In this document: one piece after another, positions 7,937-15,412 of the stretch
Layout of the letters: each line of letters opens with the position of its first letter
Position numbering within the stretch: position 1 is the stretch's first letter
Source of the DNA: Turneriellaceae bacterium
GTDB taxonomy: Bacteria; Spirochaetota; Leptospiria; Turneriellales; JAOUFE01
Assembly: GCA_050304475.1 (NCBI GenBank)
Contig: JBNLDQ010000003.1
Span: forward strand, 143,833 to 207,832
Direction: 5' to 3'
Length of the DNA stretch: 64,000 bases
Notes under the pieces: generated by a model
Database searches by the model: none
The model's input: only the letters and a program-made list of their open reading frames with translations
Told to the model about the DNA's origin: nothing
Translations under genes and position numbers: made by a program

Positions 7937-8740
7937 ATGAAAAAAGCACTTGGTATAAAAGTTTTAATCGCATTGTGGGCGCTAACCCAGTTTCATCTGC
8001 ATGCAACGGAAACGACAAAAGAGACGCCAACGGAAATCGAAACCAAAGCGGCGGCAGAGCCTGTAACGGAAACGGCAACGACAACGGAAACTGCCCGGAA
8101 AACCGATCCAGAAACCGGAACAAACCCGGGCGACTTCCCCGTCTCCGAAAAAGATGAGATTGAGACGGGGTTTGAAAACGGGGCGAGCCCCCGTTCCGAA
8201 AATCTCTTTTCCGTTATTCAACAGGGCGGCTGGGTCATGTTCTTTCTTTTAGGAATGCTCCTTTTAGGGATGACCCTGGTCGGAGAGCGGTGCATCTATT
8301 ACGTCGCCCACAAGTCCTGGGAAAAGGCCCCGCTCGAAAAACATCTATATAATACGTTTCAAATGAGCGGCGCAAAATACAAAGAAGAGATGGAAACCGA
8401 TCTGCGCGGGCATCTTCAACTCTACTTCAATCGCCTGGAAAAGAGCCTCAACCTGATTCACGGCATCGGAAATCTGGCGCCGCTGATCGGATTTTTCGGA
8501 ACGGTCATTGGTATGATCCGGGCTTTTGCCGCCATTGCTTCGGCAGCCGTTGTGAATGCCAAGGTTGTCGCCGTGGGCATTCAAATGGCGCTGGTGACGA
8601 CAGCCGGTGGTCTTGCCGTCGCGGTTTTAACTCTTTCTTTTTATCACTTGTTTTCTCATATCGTGCAGTCGCAGTACGCCTTTTCGGATGAAGTCATTCA
8701 AACGCTCGTGGGCAAACTGCCGCCATATTCGGAGAAGTAA
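7937..8740 (+). CDS. exbB: MotA/TolQ/ExbB-family proton channel with a T/E/P-rich N-terminal extension
   Basis: GGWVMFFLLGMLLLGMTLVGERCIYY and LIHGIGNLAPLIGFFGTVIGMIRAFAAIA are typical ExbB/TolQ TM2-TM3 signatures. Confidence 0.9.
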   Translation: MKKALGIKVLIALWALTQFHLHATETTKETPTEIETKAAAEPVTETATTTETARKTDPETGTNPGDFPVSEKDEIETGFENGASPRSENLFSVIQQGGWVMFFLLGMLLLGMTLVGERCIYYVAHKSWEKAPLEKHLYNTFQMSGAKYKEEMETDLRGHLQLYFNRLEKSLNLIHGIGNLAPLIGFFGTVIGMIRAFAAIASAAVVNAKVVAVGIQMALVTTAGGLAVAVLTLSFYHLFSHIVQSQYAFSDEVIQTLVGKLPPYSEK

Positions 8741-8743
8741 CCC

Positions 8744-9184
8744 GTGAACTTCATCCAAAACCCCTGGCTGGCGAAACCGAAAGCAATACGAAAGACAATG
8801 CTTCATACCGAAATGGAAACATCCGCAATCGGAGATATGGCTTTTTTGCTGCTGATCTTTTTTATTGTAACCAGTTCATTTTTAATGAGAATGGGGATTT
8901 TTCTCTCATTGCCTTCGGACTCGGGGGGAGCCATAAAGGTCGAAAAGAAACAGCTTTTCGAGATCACCCCGCTAGGCAACGGTTATCTGGTAGACCAAAA
9001 CCGGGTAACCGGCCTTGAGGCATTGGAACTTTTACGGCAAAAAAAAGAATCGCAAAACAATCTCATTTATGTAGTATACATGAACCCATCGTTAAAATAC
9101 GAGCGGCTGATTGACGCCCTTTCCCTGGCCGGAAAGGCGGGCGTTCAAAACATTTCGGTTAAAGATAAAGTAAAAGATAAATAA
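8744..9184 (+). CDS. exbD: ExbD/TolR-family biopolymer transport protein
   Basis: GTG start 4 nt after the exbB stop. Single TM IGDMAFLLLIFFIVTSSF followed by a periplasmic domain. Confidence 0.85.
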   Translation: MNFIQNPWLAKPKAIRKTMLHTEMETSAIGDMAFLLLIFFIVTSSFLMRMGIFLSLPSDSGGAIKVEKKQLFEITPLGNGYLVDQNRVTGLEALELLRQKKESQNNLIYVVYMNPSLKYERLIDALSLAGKAGVQNISVKDKVKDK

Positions 9185-9185
9185 G

Positions 9186-9569
9186 ATGCGAAAGATCAGC
9201 GTAAAACCGGTCACAGTAGGGGCCGCCATGGCCGACATGGCAATGCTTTTGCTGGTATTTTTTATGACGACGACTACCACCGAACCGCCCGCCGGCGTCG
9301 ACGTTGAACCGCCTTCCGGTTATGTTCAGCCGGCCGAGCAAGAGAGTCTGTATATTACCGTCTCGACAGAGGGCGCGCTTTATTGCGACGGGCAAGCGGT
9401 AACCATGCAAGCTTTACGCAATATATTGGCTTTCCGGGCGCATGAAAAAGAGACGCCTGTTTCAATTACCGCCGACAAAAACCTCGATTACGGCATTGTC
9501 TCGGGTTTGCTGAAAACATTACAGCAAAGCGGATTTTTAAATGTCACTTTTATGGCTGAAGAAAAATGA
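9186..9569 (+). CDS. exbD: ExbD/TolR-family biopolymer transport protein (second copy)
   Basis: MADMAMLLLVFFMTTTTT TM segment and ExbD-like periplasmic domain (PVSITADKNLDYGIVSGLLKTLQQSGF). Confidence 0.85.
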   Translation: MRKISVKPVTVGAAMADMAMLLLVFFMTTTTTEPPAGVDVEPPSGYVQPAEQESLYITVSTEGALYCDGQAVTMQALRNILAFRAHEKETPVSITADKNLDYGIVSGLLKTLQQSGFLNVTFMAEEK

Positions 9570-10225
9570 TGGAAATGATACATAGAACGAGCCGCCGCAT
9601 AGGCTTTGCGCTTTTGCGCAGGTGCGTTAAAAACGTGAAAGCAGAGACAAAAAATCACCCGCAAGCAATATCATTTTGCTTCTCGGCGATAGCCATGATT
9701 TTTGTTTTGTTTTATTCCCCGTCAGACAAAGCGGTAAAAGACCGCGACATCGCCAATGCGTTTCGCATGGTCAATATCGAGAAAATCGCTTTACCGAAAA
9801 GAAAGACAAAAAAACAGATCGACGTAAACGCGGAAAAAGAGACGGTTCCCGATGAGACCGAACGCGCCGAAGGGTTGAGCGAGTCCGAAGACGCGGTAGA
9901 CCTCTCTTTTTTTCCGAATGTTGTCCCCCCTCGCCCGGTCGGAAAACTGCAAAAAATTTACCCGGAAGAGGCGCGCCGGCGCGAGGTAGAAGCGACAGTC
10001 TACGTCAGATTGTTGATCGGTAAAAAGGGCGAAGTACAAACGGCGCAAGTGTTAGCCACCCATTTGAGCAAATCTCTCCCCCAGGATGCAGCCGAAACGC
10101 TAAAGGCAAAGTTTGCCGGGGCCGCCGTGAAAATATTACAAAATGCAAGATTCAGCCCGCCCATTGTCGACGGGAAACATGTATCTATTGTAATGGAGAT
10201 GCCGTTAAAATTTGAGTTAAATTAA
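9566..10225 (+). CDS. tonB: TonB-family energy transducer (C-terminal TonB domain)
   Basis: ATGA overlap with the upstream exbD. One N-terminal TM and a charged linker. C-terminal PPRPVGKLQKIYPEEARRREVEATVYVRLLIGKKGEVQTAQV...FSPPIVDGKHV is typical of the TonB C-terminal domain. Confidence 0.8.
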   Translation: MMEMIHRTSRRIGFALLRRCVKNVKAETKNHPQAISFCFSAIAMIFVLFYSPSDKAVKDRDIANAFRMVNIEKIALPKRKTKKQIDVNAEKETVPDETERAEGLSESEDAVDLSFFPNVVPPRPVGKLQKIYPEEARRREVEATVYVRLLIGKKGEVQTAQVLATHLSKSLPQDAAETLKAKFAGAAVKILQNARFSPPIVDGKHVSIVMEMPLKFELN

Positions 10226-10251: not shown

Positions 10252-11127
10252 TCATGCATGATCATAAAAAGCCAACACTTCGGCAGCCCTTTGCGAAACA
10301 AAGGCGCTGCCTTCTTTTTTCGCCAACGGAATGATTGTGTTGTTTATTTTTCTTTCAAGATCCCAGCCGGCGTTGGGCTTGCGCTTGCTTCGCAACAGGT
10401 CAAGCGCCCTGCTTAACCGTATCTCTTTTACATTTTCTCTTTTCAGCAGCCACAAAATTTCAAGAAAATCGGATTGATACATATTCGGGAAAGTCAGCTT
10501 TTTAATGTTCGTATGCAGAAAGTTTGATTTTTCATGAGAAGAAAAACAAACCTCATGGCGCAAAATAAAATCAATGCAATTGCCCAGCAAACGCTGCGCG
10601 CTCTTTGTTCTGTTTTTGCGCGGAACAAATGATAAACCTTTCAGAAGTTTTACAACCCCCCAAAAACAGGTATGCCTGCCATAGCAACTCCGGTTAGAGT
10701 AATAAGGAGCGCCGGCCGGGGTTTTATAATCGCCGTCATCAAACCGTTGGTACAAAACAAAAAAATCAATCGCCTTGTTTACCGTTTCGGTCTGGTTCAT
10801 CTTAAAATATTGCAGCAGATAAATCATATTGCCATTTAAACACGGGATCGGAAAATGAGATTTGCCTATCGTAAAAATATTGTTTTTTTGATCGTAAAAA
10901 TGGTTTGCAATGGCTGTTAGCGGTTTTTTTAGTTTTTCATTTTCGGCCGGGCTTTGTATGTCGGCAAGAAAAATCAGGGTCCAAAGTGTGGCGCTATAGA
11001 CAGGGCTGTAGTGCTTAAACCCGGGGTACCCCTTCTCTTTTTCGTTGAGCACATTCCAGCAACCCGTTTCATCTTGCAATTTTATAATATCATTAGTGAT
11101 TTTTTCAATAAGAGAGTTCAGGTCCAT
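10252..11127 (-). CDS. Alpha/alpha-toroid-like (squalene-cyclase / prenyltransferase repeat-like) protein of unknown function
   Basis: N-terminal LQDETGCW fits the QW motif Q-x3-G-x-W, and C-terminal KPNAGWDL is a related repeat. Regularly spaced aromatic-rich helices (ATLWTLIFLADI, NGNMIYLLQYF, AIDFFVLYQRF, CFWGVVKLLKGL, SDFLEILWLLK). The functional assignment is tentative. Confidence 0.6.
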   Translation of the reverse strand: MDLNSLIEKITNDIIKLQDETGCWNVLNEKEKGYPGFKHYSPVYSATLWTLIFLADIQSPAENEKLKKPLTAIANHFYDQKNNIFTIGKSHFPIPCLNGNMIYLLQYFKMNQTETVNKAIDFFVLYQRFDDGDYKTPAGAPYYSNRSCYGRHTCFWGVVKLLKGLSFVPRKNRTKSAQRLLGNCIDFILRHEVCFSSHEKSNFLHTNIKKLTFPNMYQSDFLEILWLLKRENVKEIRLSRALDLLRSKRKPNAGWDLERKINNTIIPLAKKEGSAFVSQRAAEVLAFYDHA

Positions 11128-11265: not shown

Positions 11266-12066
11266 TCATCCCTTTAACAAGGGCAACGCATTCATAAAAA
11301 CCGCCCCCGTAAGCCACGTTGTAACAAATACTACAATCGCGCCGCTTACCGGGAAAAAACTTTGAGCCGTTGTTACGGCGCCGGCTTCAACCATATGGCT
11401 TACGACAAGGCCCGAGATACTCATGCAAAGGGTCAGGTAAAAAAGAGAAACCGCCAACCCAACGGCCCGGGGGCGTGTACGCAGGTAAAATATAAGCGGG
11501 CGATATGGCGCTTTGGCGTAGAGCCGGGACAGAAAAGCTTCTCCGTCTTTTTGCGGGAAAGGGAGCAGCGCATAGAGAGCAATGAAATCAATGGCAATCA
11601 TGGCCGCAATGGCAGGCGCGGTGGCAGGCCCGCCAAAGGCATAGCCAAAGGAAGCTGAAAGCGATGCAAAGAGCAGTTGAAAAAAAACGCCCGCCAACGG
11701 CAGGGTTACCGGTAGCATCGTATTTGTTTCCGTGTCTATCCGATATGACGAGATTGCGAACAGTTGAAAACCCTTCAGACAGATCATCGCTCGGTGGTCC
11801 TTGCGGTAGACGGAAGCAACGATATGACCCAACTCATGAACATACATTGAAATGATAATGAGCCCGGTCACGAGCAAGCCGGACAAAATAGAGCCCTCCA
11901 TGATACCGGCAAAGTGAACCCGAGACAGGAGATAACATTGTACGGCAACCGCCAGCGCAAGAAGAGGGGCGATCCTGTATTTTTGCAGCCAGGGCGAAAC
12001 CACGGGATAATAGCGAGATGGGTTTTGCAGCAAAAAAAGAATTTTTATCGTTTTATCGCTCATCAA
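11266..12066 (-). CDS. Polytopic membrane zinc metalloprotease, M50 / site-2-protease-like (candidate leader peptidase)
   Basis: HExxH within a TM helix (ISMYVHELGHIVASVY) and a downstream LLPFPQKDGE resembling the S2P NxxPxxxLDG motif. Six or more hydrophobic segments. Confidence 0.75.
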   Translation of the reverse strand: MMSDKTIKILFLLQNPSRYYPVVSPWLQKYRIAPLLALAVAVQCYLLSRVHFAGIMEGSILSGLLVTGLIIISMYVHELGHIVASVYRKDHRAMICLKGFQLFAISSYRIDTETNTMLPVTLPLAGVFFQLLFASLSASFGYAFGGPATAPAIAAMIAIDFIALYALLPFPQKDGEAFLSRLYAKAPYRPLIFYLRTRPRAVGLAVSLFYLTLCMSISGLVVSHMVEAGAVTTAQSFFPVSGAIVVFVTTWLTGAVFMNALPLLKG

Positions 12067-12094
12067 CCTTTGGCCCCTCTTTTATAAAAGCGGT

Positions 12095-13552
12095 TCAACA
12101 AGCCTGCGAGCCCGCCTCTATAAAGCCTTTTTTAGCGCCTTTAGTCTCTTTGCAAGAGCAGCTCTTTCCTTTTTTCTCTTGCTTTTTCTCAAGCAGATGT
12201 TCGGCTTCTAAAAAAAGGTCGGGCGCTTTTGCCTGGAACGTTTCTTTAAATTCAAAACAGTGCGGCGCATTTAATTTACCGGAAGCCAACTCAGCCTGAT
12301 GAGCGCACCCGCCGGCGCAAAGAAAAATATATTCGCACTCCAGGCATTCGGGAATCGAAGCGGCGTCCCGCCCTTCCCATTCCTTGAGTCTTTCTTCCCC
12401 CAGGTTAAAATCAGGGTGGTAGAAACCGGTTTTGCGCTCCTGTACGCCAAGCTCGTCCCAGCAAGAGTAGATATTTCCGTCTGCGGCAAAAATGTACGTG
12501 TTCCGGTGCGCGCCGCACGGGTTCGCCTTAAGACCGGGGAACTTTGCATTTGAAAAGAGCAACGACTTGAAAACACCCAAAGAAGCAAAGCCGGTAGAGA
12601 GCATATTGGGTAAAATTTTTTCCCCCAGGCCTTCTATTGTTTTCTGCAAGCTCATCGGTGTAACGCGTTTTTTAGTCGCGGTTGCAGTGTGGGTGGGGTG
12701 CGCATATGGGCGGAAAAATTCATACTTATACCAACCTTGAGAAACATAAAACCGGTGCAGTTCTTCCAGTTTTTCGATATTATTGCTATCGACATTGCTT
12801 CGGACCGATACACTGCATCCTTTTTTAAGGGCAAGGTCGATGCCGTTACACACTTGTTGAAAAGATTTGCTCTTCTTTACGCCATAGCGCCGGTTGTCAT
12901 GAACTTCTTCGGGGCCATCCAGAGTAACCTGCATCGACCGGATTTTATCTTTACCCAAAAGATCTTCGTAATGCGGCAGGTCAACGCCGTTGGTTACGGC
13001 AAAAAAAGAAAACCCCAGAGAGTTCCCTTTTTCGAGAATATACTTTACCAGCTCATGATTCTCCGCCATCAAGGGTTCGCCGCCATACAGGGTAATTGTC
13101 TTTTCATGCTTCCGGTATTTTTTTGTTAGCCCGGTAATCGCTTTAAACATAGAGTCAACATGGGCTTTTGTCATCGTCTGGCGTTTTTCTTCGACGTTTT
13201 CCCGGATCACGGGTTTTTCATAACAATAGCTGCACCGCAGTTGGCACCCCAATGTCGGGGCGATAATGAAACCGGTCGTCTTTTGCGAACTTTGGTTGAG
13301 AAGCGTTGATATTTTTTTTACCAGCGCTTGCTCTTCGGAAACGCTTTTAGAAGTCAAATACCCGCGGGTAACCAGTTGCTTGACGGTACTCGGGTCAAGA
13401 TCATCCGGGCTATCGTTTTGAAGCGACTCCAGCACGGCAATATCCACCTTATCTACCGCGCCGGAATAGCCCTGGATCAAAACTCCGAATTTTTTTTGAA
13501 GCACAGGCGTATAGATATTATACGAGCTGGCTCGAAGCGCACTTACCTTCAT
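12095..13552 (-). CDS. Radical SAM / SPASM-domain peptide maturase
   Basis: CxxxCxxC cluster motif (GCQLRCSYC). GGEPL motif (LYGGEPLM). Complete SPASM pattern C-x12-G-x4-C (CGAHRNTYIFAADGNIYSC) then C-x2-C-x5-C-x3-C (CLECEYIFLCAGGC) with a later Cys (PHCFEF). About 95 aa of N-terminal extension before the rSAM core, RRE/PqqD-like in position. Confidence 0.9.
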   Translation of the reverse strand: MKVSALRASSYNIYTPVLQKKFGVLIQGYSGAVDKVDIAVLESLQNDSPDDLDPSTVKQLVTRGYLTSKSVSEEQALVKKISTLLNQSSQKTTGFIIAPTLGCQLRCSYCYEKPVIRENVEEKRQTMTKAHVDSMFKAITGLTKKYRKHEKTITLYGGEPLMAENHELVKYILEKGNSLGFSFFAVTNGVDLPHYEDLLGKDKIRSMQVTLDGPEEVHDNRRYGVKKSKSFQQVCNGIDLALKKGCSVSVRSNVDSNNIEKLEELHRFYVSQGWYKYEFFRPYAHPTHTATATKKRVTPMSLQKTIEGLGEKILPNMLSTGFASLGVFKSLLFSNAKFPGLKANPCGAHRNTYIFAADGNIYSCWDELGVQERKTGFYHPDFNLGEERLKEWEGRDAASIPECLECEYIFLCAGGCAHQAELASGKLNAPHCFEFKETFQAKAPDLFLEAEHLLEKKQEKKGKSCSCKETKGAKKGFIEAGSQAC

Positions 13553-13573: not shown

Positions 13574-14053
13574 CTAATCAATGTCGACCAGAAGATCGTT
13601 TACGCCAATACCGATTTCACCGGGCTGCAAGCCGGTATTTGACGTCAATTGCTCTTCAAGCTCGGCCCATTTTTTATCTTTGCGGGCTTGTATCATTTTT
13701 TTCTTGTCATTGACCCTGGTAAAAGAAAGGTACAGCGGGGTCGGCCTGTCAAGGTTAGAGCTTTTTTTCACCAACCGGTAGACGCTGACCGAATCGATCC
13801 CTTCTTCATTGTCCAACCATGCAAGCGCATCGTTTACGGCTTTTTCCGTTTGAACCCTGTCGCCCTGTTTCGGGCTGATGGGCGTAATCACGGTAAAAGG
13901 GGTGAGATGCAAGACATCGCCGAGATCTTCCTTAATTTGCTTTTTCGCCGCCTGGCGGCTCTCTTCGTATACTTTTCTTTTTTTGGTCTGCCCTTCTTCT
14001 TTGTGAAGATTGAGGTGTTTGGTAATTTTATCAATGCGCTCTTTTCGTGCCAT
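13574..14053 (-). CDS. Hypothetical protein (159 aa), distant paralog of the 14511..14984 product
   Basis: Start moved to ATG 14053, which has SD AAGGA 7 nt upstream. The longer 14203 start would overlap the precursor gene by 98 nt. Lys-rich N-terminus. By-eye similarity to the 157-aa neighbour. Confidence 0.7.
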   Translation of the reverse strand: MARKERIDKITKHLNLHKEEGQTKKRKVYEESRQAAKKQIKEDLGDVLHLTPFTVITPISPKQGDRVQTEKAVNDALAWLDNEEGIDSVSVYRLVKKSSNLDRPTPLYLSFTRVNDKKKMIQARKDKKWAELEEQLTSNTGLQPGEIGIGVNDLLVDID

Positions 14054-14105: not shown

Positions 14106-14468
14106 TCAGCTGGAAGCCATAAAGCAATCGCTGCCGCAACTGCCAAAATCGACATAACATTGTGTGCCGCATTGCGAGCATATGTCACCAATGGCGCATG
14201 CATCGGCCGTACAGTTCGTTACGCAATCGGACATGCAAGAGCAGTCCATCATACATGAGAGGTCCATGCTACATCCGGTCGCAGTCGATGTTAAGCTGCC
14301 GGCCTCATCCGAAAAATCCAGGGGACAACTCGTGCTGATCGGTTCGATGCGCAATTGCGTTTGTTGAGAATCCCCGGAATCGAGCATTTGTTCAAGCTGC
14401 TCAACGCTGACATTGTCAAATAATGTTTTGTTTAACGGTTTTAATTGATTTTCGTTTTTCTTTTCCAT
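14106..14468 (-). CDS. Cysteine-rich RiPP precursor-like peptide (120 aa; 13 Cys in the C-terminal 73 residues; C-x-x-D/N repeats)
   Basis: SD GAAGGA 7 nt upstream of the ATG. Cys-free leader-like N-terminus MEKKNENQLKPLNKTLFDNVSVEQLEQMLDSG. Core SCPLDFSDEAGSLTSTATGCSMDLSCMMDCSCMSDCVTNCTADACAIGDICSQCGTQCYVDFGSCGSDCFMASS. Lies two genes upstream of the rSAM/SPASM gene. Confidence 0.8.
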   Translation of the reverse strand: MEKKNENQLKPLNKTLFDNVSVEQLEQMLDSGDSQQTQLRIEPISTSCPLDFSDEAGSLTSTATGCSMDLSCMMDCSCMSDCVTNCTADACAIGDICSQCGTQCYVDFGSCGSDCFMASS

Positions 14469-14510
14469 TCTTAATCCTTCGTTAATCGTTTGTTGCCGGT
14501 AATTCTGTCG

Positions 14511-14984
14511 TTAAATTAAACCTAGCAATGTTCCGTTGACAACAGATTGACCGTCGTCCATTTTTTTCTTCTCCGAACAAAGGGCCGAAATTTGTTTTTC
14601 AATTTGCGACAAGTTCGGGCTATTGGCCGCTTTTTTCATCGCGCCCCGGTGGCGTGCAATAATGATCATGACCAACTCGGGCTCTGCAAGCCGGTTGTTT
14701 TTCCCTTCATTCACCTTCTCATAGAGCATGACATAGTTAATGCTCTTTTCTTGTTCAAGAATAGCAACCGCCTCAACAAGCAAATCGAGAACATCTTGTT
14801 TTTTACCGTCAAGTGGCTGAAACGGCCACTTGTAAAAAACGGGAGATTTTTCCAGAATAAATTCGTAATCTTTTTTAATCTCCTTTGCGGTCTCTATTTT
14901 CGCTTCTTTGATAAAATCATCAAAACCGGGTTTACCGCGGTAATTGTCGATTTGCGTTTTTATGGTTTGCGCGTAGTCCTGCAT
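14511..14984 (-). CDS. Hypothetical protein (157 aa), first gene of the operon, distant paralog of the 13574..14053 product
   Basis: SD GGAGG 4-5 nt upstream of the ATG. No recognisable motif. Confidence 0.75.
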   Translation of the reverse strand: MQDYAQTIKTQIDNYRGKPGFDDFIKEAKIETAKEIKKDYEFILEKSPVFYKWPFQPLDGKKQDVLDLLVEAVAILEQEKSINYVMLYEKVNEGKNNRLAEPELVMIIIARHRGAMKKAANSPNLSQIEKQISALCSEKKKMDDGQSVVNGTLLGLI

Positions 14985-15412
14985 AGACCCTCCGAAATTA
15001 TTAACATTTATCTACGAAAGTGCTGTGTCTTTGCGGGTAAAAACAAAGACATACCAGATTTGACCAAGAGTTAAAAAAAAGAAAACATTTTAATACGTAT
15101 TTTGTTATTATTTCTGCGTATCATTTTACTTTTATCTTTAACTATATCGCTGTTGATATCATATTGGCATTAATCATAGACTGAGGATATATTTATCATC
15201 CCCCTGTGCCGGCACAACATTAATTTTAAAATTTATTAAATCCTTAGGAAAAAGAGTAAAAATGTCAATTTTTCTATTATAGTTTTAGAATTGCAGAATT
15301 GGCAAAGTTTCTCATTTGTGCCAGGCTGTGCCCGGCTGCAAAACGCACTCAAAATGGAGGAGGCCCGCCAGGCGTTTGAGAAATACTACGCGATTTCCGC
15401 GGGATCGTTTTT

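Follow-up and report, generated by a model that had tools for sequence, protein, structure and literature searches.

A 64,000-nucleotide stretch from a Turneriellaceae bacterium (GenBank assembly GCA_050304475.1, contig JBNLDQ010000003.1, positions 143,833 to 207,832; hereafter the window) contains a short open reading frame (ORF) whose product is crowded with cysteines, and we asked whether this ORF encodes the precursor of a ribosomally made peptide that is modified post-translationally (RiPP) and what the neighboring radical S-adenosylmethionine (rSAM) enzyme might do to it. The ORF is very probably a real rSAM-RiPP precursor. That its links would be thioethers between Cys(i) and Asp or Asn(i+3), as analogy suggests, is by itself almost an even call; the combined reading that we favor, with a little better than even confidence, is a genuine precursor in which thioethers would tie each Cys to the Asp or Asn at the third position downstream, so that about 10 four-residue rings at most could form. 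An earlier note on this DNA had placed the ORF where we find it, and its translation is identical to ours, but the frame has to be read on the minus strand, since the plus-strand reading is full of stops. When recomputed, the counts of that note agreed: a Cys-free N-terminus of 47 residues is followed by a core of 73 residues with 13 Cys, and the core holds all of the listed units, namely seven C-x-x-D (CPLD, CSMD, CMMD, CMSD, CTAD, CYVD and CGSD) together with CVTN, CGTQ and CAIGD.

The C-x-x-D register is far from random. It occurs seven times in the core against a mean of 1.56 over 20,000 core shuffles, none of which reached seven (p<5e-5), and the other registers examined in the same shuffles (C.D, C...D, C....D, D..C, D.C and DC) were at chance level, C...D for example being observed once with 1.54 expected. 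Eight of the nine core Asp residues sit three or four residues after a Cys, seven of them exactly at Cys+3, and 10 of the Cys have Asp, Asn or Gln at +3 or +4. The Cys residues (48, 66, 72, 76, 78, 82, 86, 91, 97, 100, 104, 111 and 115) are irregularly spaced, at intervals of 18, 6, 4, 2, 4, 4, 5, 6, 3, 4, 7 and 4, and the core contains 10 acidic residues and no basic one. No tandem DNA repeat was found in the precursor gene, and the C-x-x-D units are written in mixed codons (TGT or TGC for Cys, GAT or GAC for Asp), so the Cys/Asp pattern is kept at the protein level. A recent tandem-repeat duplication as the source of the units was thus ruled out.

A homology search with the whole peptide returned only the peptide itself among 5.8 billion proteins, and no rSAM protein closer than 41% identity was found in the protein search, the GTDB genomes or the JGI metagenomes; the locus is therefore a singleton. 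The earlier note had proposed comparing the core with RiPP precursor models, and this comparison drew a blank: neither Pfam nor NCBIfam, including its CefA model, gave a match to the precursor, and no signal peptide or known domain was detected with these profiles. The leader, LKPLNKTLFDNVSVEQLEQ, matches the motif SLNxxLxxxSIEELExRLE. A hidden Markov model (HMM) of this leader, built without the window sequence, picked the window ORF out of 12,741 small ORFs with E=1.1e-5, and nothing else in the window matched it. When iterated, the leader HMM collected 49 non-redundant Cys-rich precursors from about 35 loci, nearly always directly beside an rSAM gene, and the flanking rSAM proteins are 24-41% identical to that of the window. 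Their hosts are Prevotella, Phocaeicola, Paraprevotella, Muribaculaceae, Ignavibacteria/Melioribacteraceae and Balneola, and further members come from Thermodesulfobacteriota, an alphaproteobacterial metagenome-assembled genome (MAG) and a Methanotrichaceae archaeon. Cys-rich ORFs beside rSAM homologues in other genomes, whose absence the earlier note would have taken as a refutation, are thus present, and they share the window leader.

The relatives with rSAM proteins of about 41% identity form a clade with a conserved cluster (loci L002, L082, L084, L085/86, L167 and L168), in which a ~160-residue protein, one to six peptides of 73-120 residues, the rSAM enzyme, an HExxH membrane protein and a toroid protein related to squalene-hopene (SQHop) cyclases and prenyltransferases are encoded together, some clusters adding a second rSAM gene or a gene for a ~340-residue protein. 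In the peptides of this clade a core containing 5-8 Cys comes after a leader of the type 'IKPLNDSLLGNLSIEELENRLQMEELD..GEMWTGC', to which the window leader 'LKPLNKTLFDNVSVEQLEQML' aligns. The window locus has all three traits of the SLN...EELExRLE-leader family, that is, the leader motif, an adjacent homologous rSAM/SPASM enzyme and an HExxH...DG membrane protease, whose homologues adjoin the rSAM homologues in about 35 loci and are conserved across the broad family. The operon, the domain matches and the leader family together bear out the proposal that a leader-plus-core precursor lies beside an rSAM/SPASM maturase. Given this context, we regard it as barely credible that the ORF is spurious and untranslated, as the failure to find any homologue of the whole peptide might suggest: a GAAGGA sequence, claimed earlier as its own Shine-Dalgarno site and confirmed by direct reading, stands 6 nucleotides ahead of the ATG, the frame fits between gaps of 42 and 52 nucleotides in a co-directional operon, its leader has homologues, and its motif is non-random and spelled in mixed codons.

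Some relatives carry several precursor genes. At L084:1100-9999 (a contig of GCA_012974705.1), six distinct precursor genes accompany a pair of neighboring rSAM genes and a gene for a 707-residue SQHop-like protein, and a partial seventh precursor copy runs across an assembly gap (X residues at 2071-2265). L021 and L061 (~11990-13200, Thermodesulfobacteriota and alphaproteobacterial MAGs) have arrays of 4-5 precursor genes in tandem, some 5 kb downstream of the rSAM gene, and in each locus several of the peptides carry 3-5 C-x-x-D. Although they are assigned to different phyla, these two loci are near-identical; mis-binning or transfer could be the reason.

The rSAM enzyme of the window has the cluster motif CQLRCSYC (C103/C107/C110) and a full seven-Cys SPASM motif (C346...G359x4C364; C403x2C406x5C412x3C416; C432), and in an alignment of 22 homologues all 3 + 7 cluster Cys are invariant or nearly so. 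Its N-terminal domain of about 95 residues is also conserved and is presumed to be the leader-binding element. Past the SPASM motif, the C-terminus (12095-12175, minus strand) ends in a tail rich in Lys and Cys, KKGKSCSCKETKGAKKGFIEAGSQAC, which lies outside the family consensus and has no conserved residues. We compared the enzyme with named families using the curated bit-score cut-offs of NCBIfam. It scored 125.8 bits against the Clo7bot maturase model (cut-off 600), 123.7 against the TIGR04463 maturase model (525), 118.6 against CefB (NF038107; 600), 102.7 against the geopeptide maturase model (400), 98.2 against PapB (NF047865; 340) and 55.6 against the SCIFF maturase (TIGR03974; 425), reaching none of the cut-offs. 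Every one of these top-ranking named families matures Cys-rich peptides, and among solved structures the thioether-forming CteB comes closest (5WGG, E=9e-31), with anSME second (5e-23). Ranthipeptides are defined by thioethers from Cys sulfur to a non-alpha carbon (C-beta or C-gamma) of the acceptor, sactipeptides by thioethers to C-alpha. In its Cys-free leader, its 13-Cys core and its adjacent rSAM/SPASM enzyme bearing CxxxCxxC and auxiliary-cluster Cys, the locus resembles ranthipeptide systems, and by this analogy it most likely functions like a ranthipeptide/sactipeptide-type system.

How might the core be modified? To our knowledge, neither an i to i+3 ring size nor such a density of rings is known in natural ranthipeptides. 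The earlier note pointed to freyrasin, in which PapB joins Cys to Asp, and this agrees with the literature: within C(X3)D motifs, PapB connects Cys and Asp by a thioether (PMC9413430). The same enzyme cross-links CX0-6D in vitro, CX2D included, and takes CX1-5D to completion (PMC9413430), so the ring size proposed here is chemically feasible. The beta-thioether made by NxxcB joins Cys to Asn with two residues in between, and Asp is tolerated in place of Asn (PMC9389541). In the mechanism that we propose, the leader, through its conserved residues 7-27, would be bound by the N-terminal domain of the adjacent rSAM/SPASM enzyme, and a Cys thiol would be activated on an auxiliary cluster. The enzyme, by means of the SAM cluster and a pair of auxiliary Fe-S clusters, would then abstract a hydrogen from the residue at Cys+3; seven units would offer Asp as the acceptor and two would offer Asn or Gln, and one unit would use Asp at +4. 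Joining the Cys sulfur to the acceptor carbon would fill the strongly anionic core with four-residue thioether rings, at most about 10 of them, which would follow one another without overlap, in an order such as C72-D75 / C76 / C78-D81 / C82-N85 / C86-D89. The carbon attacked may be beta, as in PapB and NxxcB, or alpha; we leave this choice open because the alpha/beta regiochemistry of PapB can depend on the substrate (PMC12373016). Finally, the HExxH...DG membrane protease would cut off the leader, possibly coupled to release.

The C-x-x-D pattern was also analyzed in the cores of 39 non-redundant relatives, with the window excluded and with shuffles that ignore phylogeny. C..D was observed 22 times with 12.9 expected (p=0.006) and C..N 18 times with 7.0 expected (p<2e-4), so that C..[DN] as a whole is two-fold enriched (40 vs 20.0); C..[DN]C occurred 11 times instead of 3.2 (p=2e-4), and C...C 42 times instead of 27.6. 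C..C is about six-fold depleted, with 5 observed and 28.9 expected (5 vs 33.6 in the undeduplicated set), which argues against a classical metal-chelating peptide. This depletion weakens the metal-binding alternative that the earlier note had offered. An unmodified Cys/Asp-rich peptide, metal-binding or disulfide-rich and merely located beside an rSAM gene, would account for the high Cys and Asp content; it is nevertheless very improbable, because C-x-x-C, the spacing usual in metal chelation, occurs only once in the window core as well, because the conserved leader co-occurs with the rSAM enzyme and the protease in dozens of loci, and because the peptide has no signal peptide or known domain.

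The expectation that the C-x-x-D spacing would persist while the x positions vary fits one set of orthologues: C-A-x-D, with x variable, is retained in the cores of L082, L167 and L168. As a universal signature of the family C-x-x-D does not hold. What can most safely be said is that Cys+3 is special in the family, being frequently though not invariably occupied by Asp or Asn, and that the window peptide is the extreme Asp-rich case. An uncultured Prevotella MAG (L019:7360-7617) encodes a leader-family precursor with six C-x-x-N in a near-perfect heptad repeat (CTGNSGS CGTNSGD CSGNSGG CGENSYD CKGNKSD CGINI).

Several observations weigh against the proposed pairing. Cys 76, 97 and 115 of the window peptide have no Asp, Asn or Gln partner. 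Of the 39 relatives, no more than 20 contain a C-x-x-[D/N] unit, and enrichment at Cys+3 extends to His, Tyr, Arg and Phe, suggesting that Asp is perhaps not an obligatory acceptor, or that the signal partly reflects the residue before the next Cys. The window peptide has no alignable true orthologue, and the operon contains no evident gene for transport or immunity. The rSAM enzyme lies far below the cut-off of PapB, the enzyme type that the earlier note took as its model and that the score does not support, and below every other named cut-off, so that function is transferred by analogy.

These points bear on a second reading, in which the ORF is a genuine rSAM-RiPP precursor whose links would be of the sactionine type (S to C-alpha), or long-range nested hairpins, or both, with Asp serving solubility, charge or target binding. 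The operon and the leader evidence fit this reading equally, the distance of the rSAM enzyme from sactisynthase-like enzymes is about the same as its distance from PapB, and many relatives lack any C-x-x-[D/N]. The substrate-dependent regiochemistry of PapB moreover blurs the divide between sactipeptides and ranthipeptides (PMC12373016). We consider it unlikely, though it deserves more weight than the other alternatives, because the fixation of seven of the nine core Asp at Cys+3 is hard to explain if Asp is not the partner, and because C..[DN] is enriched across the family. In known sactipeptides the Cys-donor half is separate from the acceptor half, whereas the window Cys are spread over the whole core.

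The precursor gene lies in a putative operon on the minus strand, in the order 157-residue protein, precursor, 160-residue protein, rSAM/SPASM enzyme, HELGH membrane protein and 291-residue toroid protein, all tightly spaced (Table 1). A 209-residue ORF from 14203 was rejected as a longest-ORF artefact overlapping the precursor; the public call at the 160-residue gene has 159 residues.

Table 1. Positions of the precursor gene, its parts and its neighbors in the window.
Feature	Positions	Strand	Basis or remark
Precursor peptide gene	14106..14468	-	ATG-to-stop, 120 residues plus stop; called as gene in public record too
Core region, residues 48-120	14109..14327	-	13 Cys, seven C-x-x-D, plus CVTN, CGTQ, CAIGD
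Conserved leader motif, residues 7-27 (NQLKPLNKTLFDNVSVEQLEQ)	14388..14450	-	Family consensus neIkSLNenlldelsiEELEe
Shine-Dalgarno-like GAAGGA	14475..14480	-	6 nucleotides upstream of precursor ATG; sequence read directly
157-residue protein, paralogue of 160-residue protein	14511..14984	-	tblastn to L084 at 2e-14; alignment with relatives
160-residue protein (called as 159 residues)	13574..14053	-	Second copy of ~160-residue family
Radical SAM/SPASM peptide maturase, 485 residues	12095..13552	-	Pfam Radical_SAM and NCBIfam SPASM domain matches
Polytopic membrane protein, 266 residues, HELGH and downstream P-x-x-DG, site-2-protease-like	11266..12066	-	Sequence
Alpha/alpha-toroid protein, 291 residues, last gene of putative operon	10252..11127	-	Weak squalene-hopene-cyclase/prenyltransferase fold relation
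Sigma-70-like promoter candidate, TTGCCA-18-TATAAT	15276..15305	-	11/12 consensus; consensus scan only

The HExxH...DG membrane protein, which may start either at a TTG (12066) or at an ATG (12063), is presumed to be the leader peptidase because it is conserved in the family and because there is a precedent in daptide biosynthesis, where an intramembrane peptidase removes the leader (PMC10028931). The NCBIfam model of the daptide intramembrane metalloprotease gave a weak match to the protease homologue of L082 (4e-5; 22.8 bits, cut-off 300) and none to the window protease.

The 157- and 160-residue paralogues, which flank the precursor gene, are 20% identical to each other. An HMM of their family matches L002, L082, L084, L085 and both window copies, and the family is confined to the closest clade. 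One of its six members matches Pfam ABM (1.5e-4), and the family is otherwise without Pfam or NCBIfam assignment; a homology search with the 160-residue protein returned only itself, and a profile search against the PDB found nothing. Its AlphaFold model is poor (predicted local distance difference test, pLDDT, of 44, from a two-sequence alignment), and the secondary structure predicted in this model, a long helix followed by beta-alpha-beta-beta-alpha, could possibly correspond to an ABM/ferredoxin-like fold. The C-terminal tail of the family is conserved, reading ...GINTMLVGIE in relatives and ...GVNDLLVDID and ...VVNGTLLGLI in the window copies.

The 291-residue protein was modeled by AlphaFold2 as an alpha/alpha toroid (pLDDT 92). 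Among its 273 homologues, Cys96 and Cys154 are invariant and Cys148 and His152 nearly so; eight of 30 homologues match SQHop_cyclase_C, and the squalene-hopene cyclase 2SQC was matched at 6e-7. Structural matches of the model are generic only (TM-score ~0.45-0.5); the top 50 include neither a LanC nor a prenyltransferase, and no LanC match was obtained by sequence either. SQHop-like toroid genes recur in at least six related loci (L082, L084, L085, L167, L168 and L169), and it is from this recurrent co-location that we infer membership of the toroid protein in the pathway; its direct link to the L082 protein is weak (1e-5). One might speculate that the Cys/His set is a thiol-activating zinc site, as in other toroid enzymes. 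A Ser/Thr-rich core together with a toroid 'cyclase' would be reminiscent of lanthipeptides, but this class was ruled out, since there is no dehydratase (LanB, LanM, LanKC or LanL) and no LanC-like match; a dehydratase gene was found neither in the window nor among the operon neighbors scanned with Pfam and NCBIfam.

The toroid protein enters a third reading, in which the precursor is genuine and the rSAM enzyme does other chemistry, such as C-C or C-O cross-linking, epimerization or anSME-like Cys oxidation, while the Cys would form disulfides or be alkylated by the toroid protein with its possible zinc site. The target motif of anSME is C-x-P/A-x-R, and the core does not contain it. Although anSME is the second-best solved relative of the enzyme, relatives show an excess of aromatic residues and His at Cys+3, and both the recurrence of the toroid gene and the conservation of its Cys/Cys/His/Cys set would suit such chemistry, all the top named matches of the enzyme are maturases of Cys-rich peptides, the fold matches of the toroid model are generic, and the window has no dehydratase gene. 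The outcomes of rSAM/SPASM catalysis are diverse (PMC10114670). Taken together, we judge this reading improbable, and we retain thioether formation between Cys and Asp or Asn as the favored one.

The promoter candidate stands upstream of the first operon gene, just past a terminator-like hairpin that ends an SH3-domain gene. Between this site and the first operon gene is an AT-rich untranslated stretch of about 290 nucleotides (14985-15305, minus strand) with no Rfam match, and Rfam and tRNA scans of the whole window were empty. An ExbD gene and a TonB-C-terminal-domain gene (7937-10225, plus strand) converge on the operon end; nothing ties this pair to the pathway.

We found no description of the leader family in the literature or among Pfam and NCBIfam models. 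Literature searches for CefB, Clo7bot, TIGR04463, geopeptide, or the combination of an rSAM enzyme, an intramembrane metalloprotease and a Cys-rich peptide returned nothing relevant, and a paper on RiPP mining in Bacteroidales covers GG-motif/PCAT clusters and not the window leader family. The locus anchors a widespread unannotated family, in which an rSAM enzyme, the leader and an intramembrane protease occur with or without a toroid protein, in gut Bacteroidota, environmental anaerobes and at least one archaeal MAG, and the shared leader motif is a simple handle for mining more members. If the proposed pairing is true, the locus would offer a natural enzyme-substrate pair for very dense and very small thioether macrocycles, about one ring per 5-6 residues, which would bear directly on peptide stapling and engineering, fields that already make use of PapB. 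The locus is a solid genome-mining lead whose chemistry is suggested by analogy.

How does this locus compare with named systems? Like freyrasin PapA/PapB of Paenibacillus polymyxa, it combines a leader and consecutive Cys...Asp units with an adjacent rSAM/SPASM enzyme with two auxiliary clusters (PMC9413430; PMC12373016), but the register is C-x-x-D instead of C-x3-D, there are 13 Cys with up to about 10 candidate pairs, and the leader family and the accessory genes (HExxH membrane protease, two ~160-residue proteins and an alpha/alpha toroid) are different. The nearest named pattern is the 'Cys-every-fifth' system CefA/CefB (NF038108/NF038107), as judged from one CefA example: the peptide of a Lacrimispora MAG (L074:5446-5745; 72.6 bits to NF038108) has nine C-x-x-[D/N] pentads in a row beside a CefB-type rSAM, which scores 576 bits to the CefB model over a partial translation. 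Of the named models, CefB ranks in the top three for the window rSAM, but the window core does not match NF038108 even at E<=10 (cut-off 30 bits), its Cys spacing is irregular and not a strict five, and its leader is different. We found no paper on CefA/CefB, and this system thus provides no mechanistic anchor.

The streptococcal NxxcA/NxxcB pair has the ring size proposed for the window peptide (PMC9389541); its acceptor, however, comes first (N-x-x-C), whereas Cys comes first in the window, where D..C is not enriched, and NxxcA has a single ring and no array. In SCIFF/thermocellin CteA-CteB, a Cys-rich core is likewise paired with an rSAM/SPASM thioether maturase, and CteB is the closest solved structure, but CteB links Cys to the C-gamma of Thr, the SCIFF precursor is a conserved six-Cys peptide of ~45 residues, and the window rSAM falls under the SCIFF cut-off. 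The daptide protein MpaP is, like the window protease, an HExxH membrane metalloprotease in a RiPP cluster, and it removes the leader (PMC10028931); daptides are a different RiPP class, and the daptide model does not recognize the window protease itself. By sequence, then, the locus falls outside PapA/PapB, CefA/CefB, SCIFF/CteB, Clo7bot and TIGR04463 on every criterion that can be tested. More tentatively still, the window peptide might be the extreme member of an undescribed RiPP family that spans bacteria and at least one archaeon of a methanogen lineage, and in which a new rSAM/SPASM clade would build about 8-10 contiguous i to i+3 thioether rings on Asp or Asn while the toroid Cys/His protein and the ABM-like partner tailor the spare Cys; it would then represent a new structural class and not an analogue of freyrasin.

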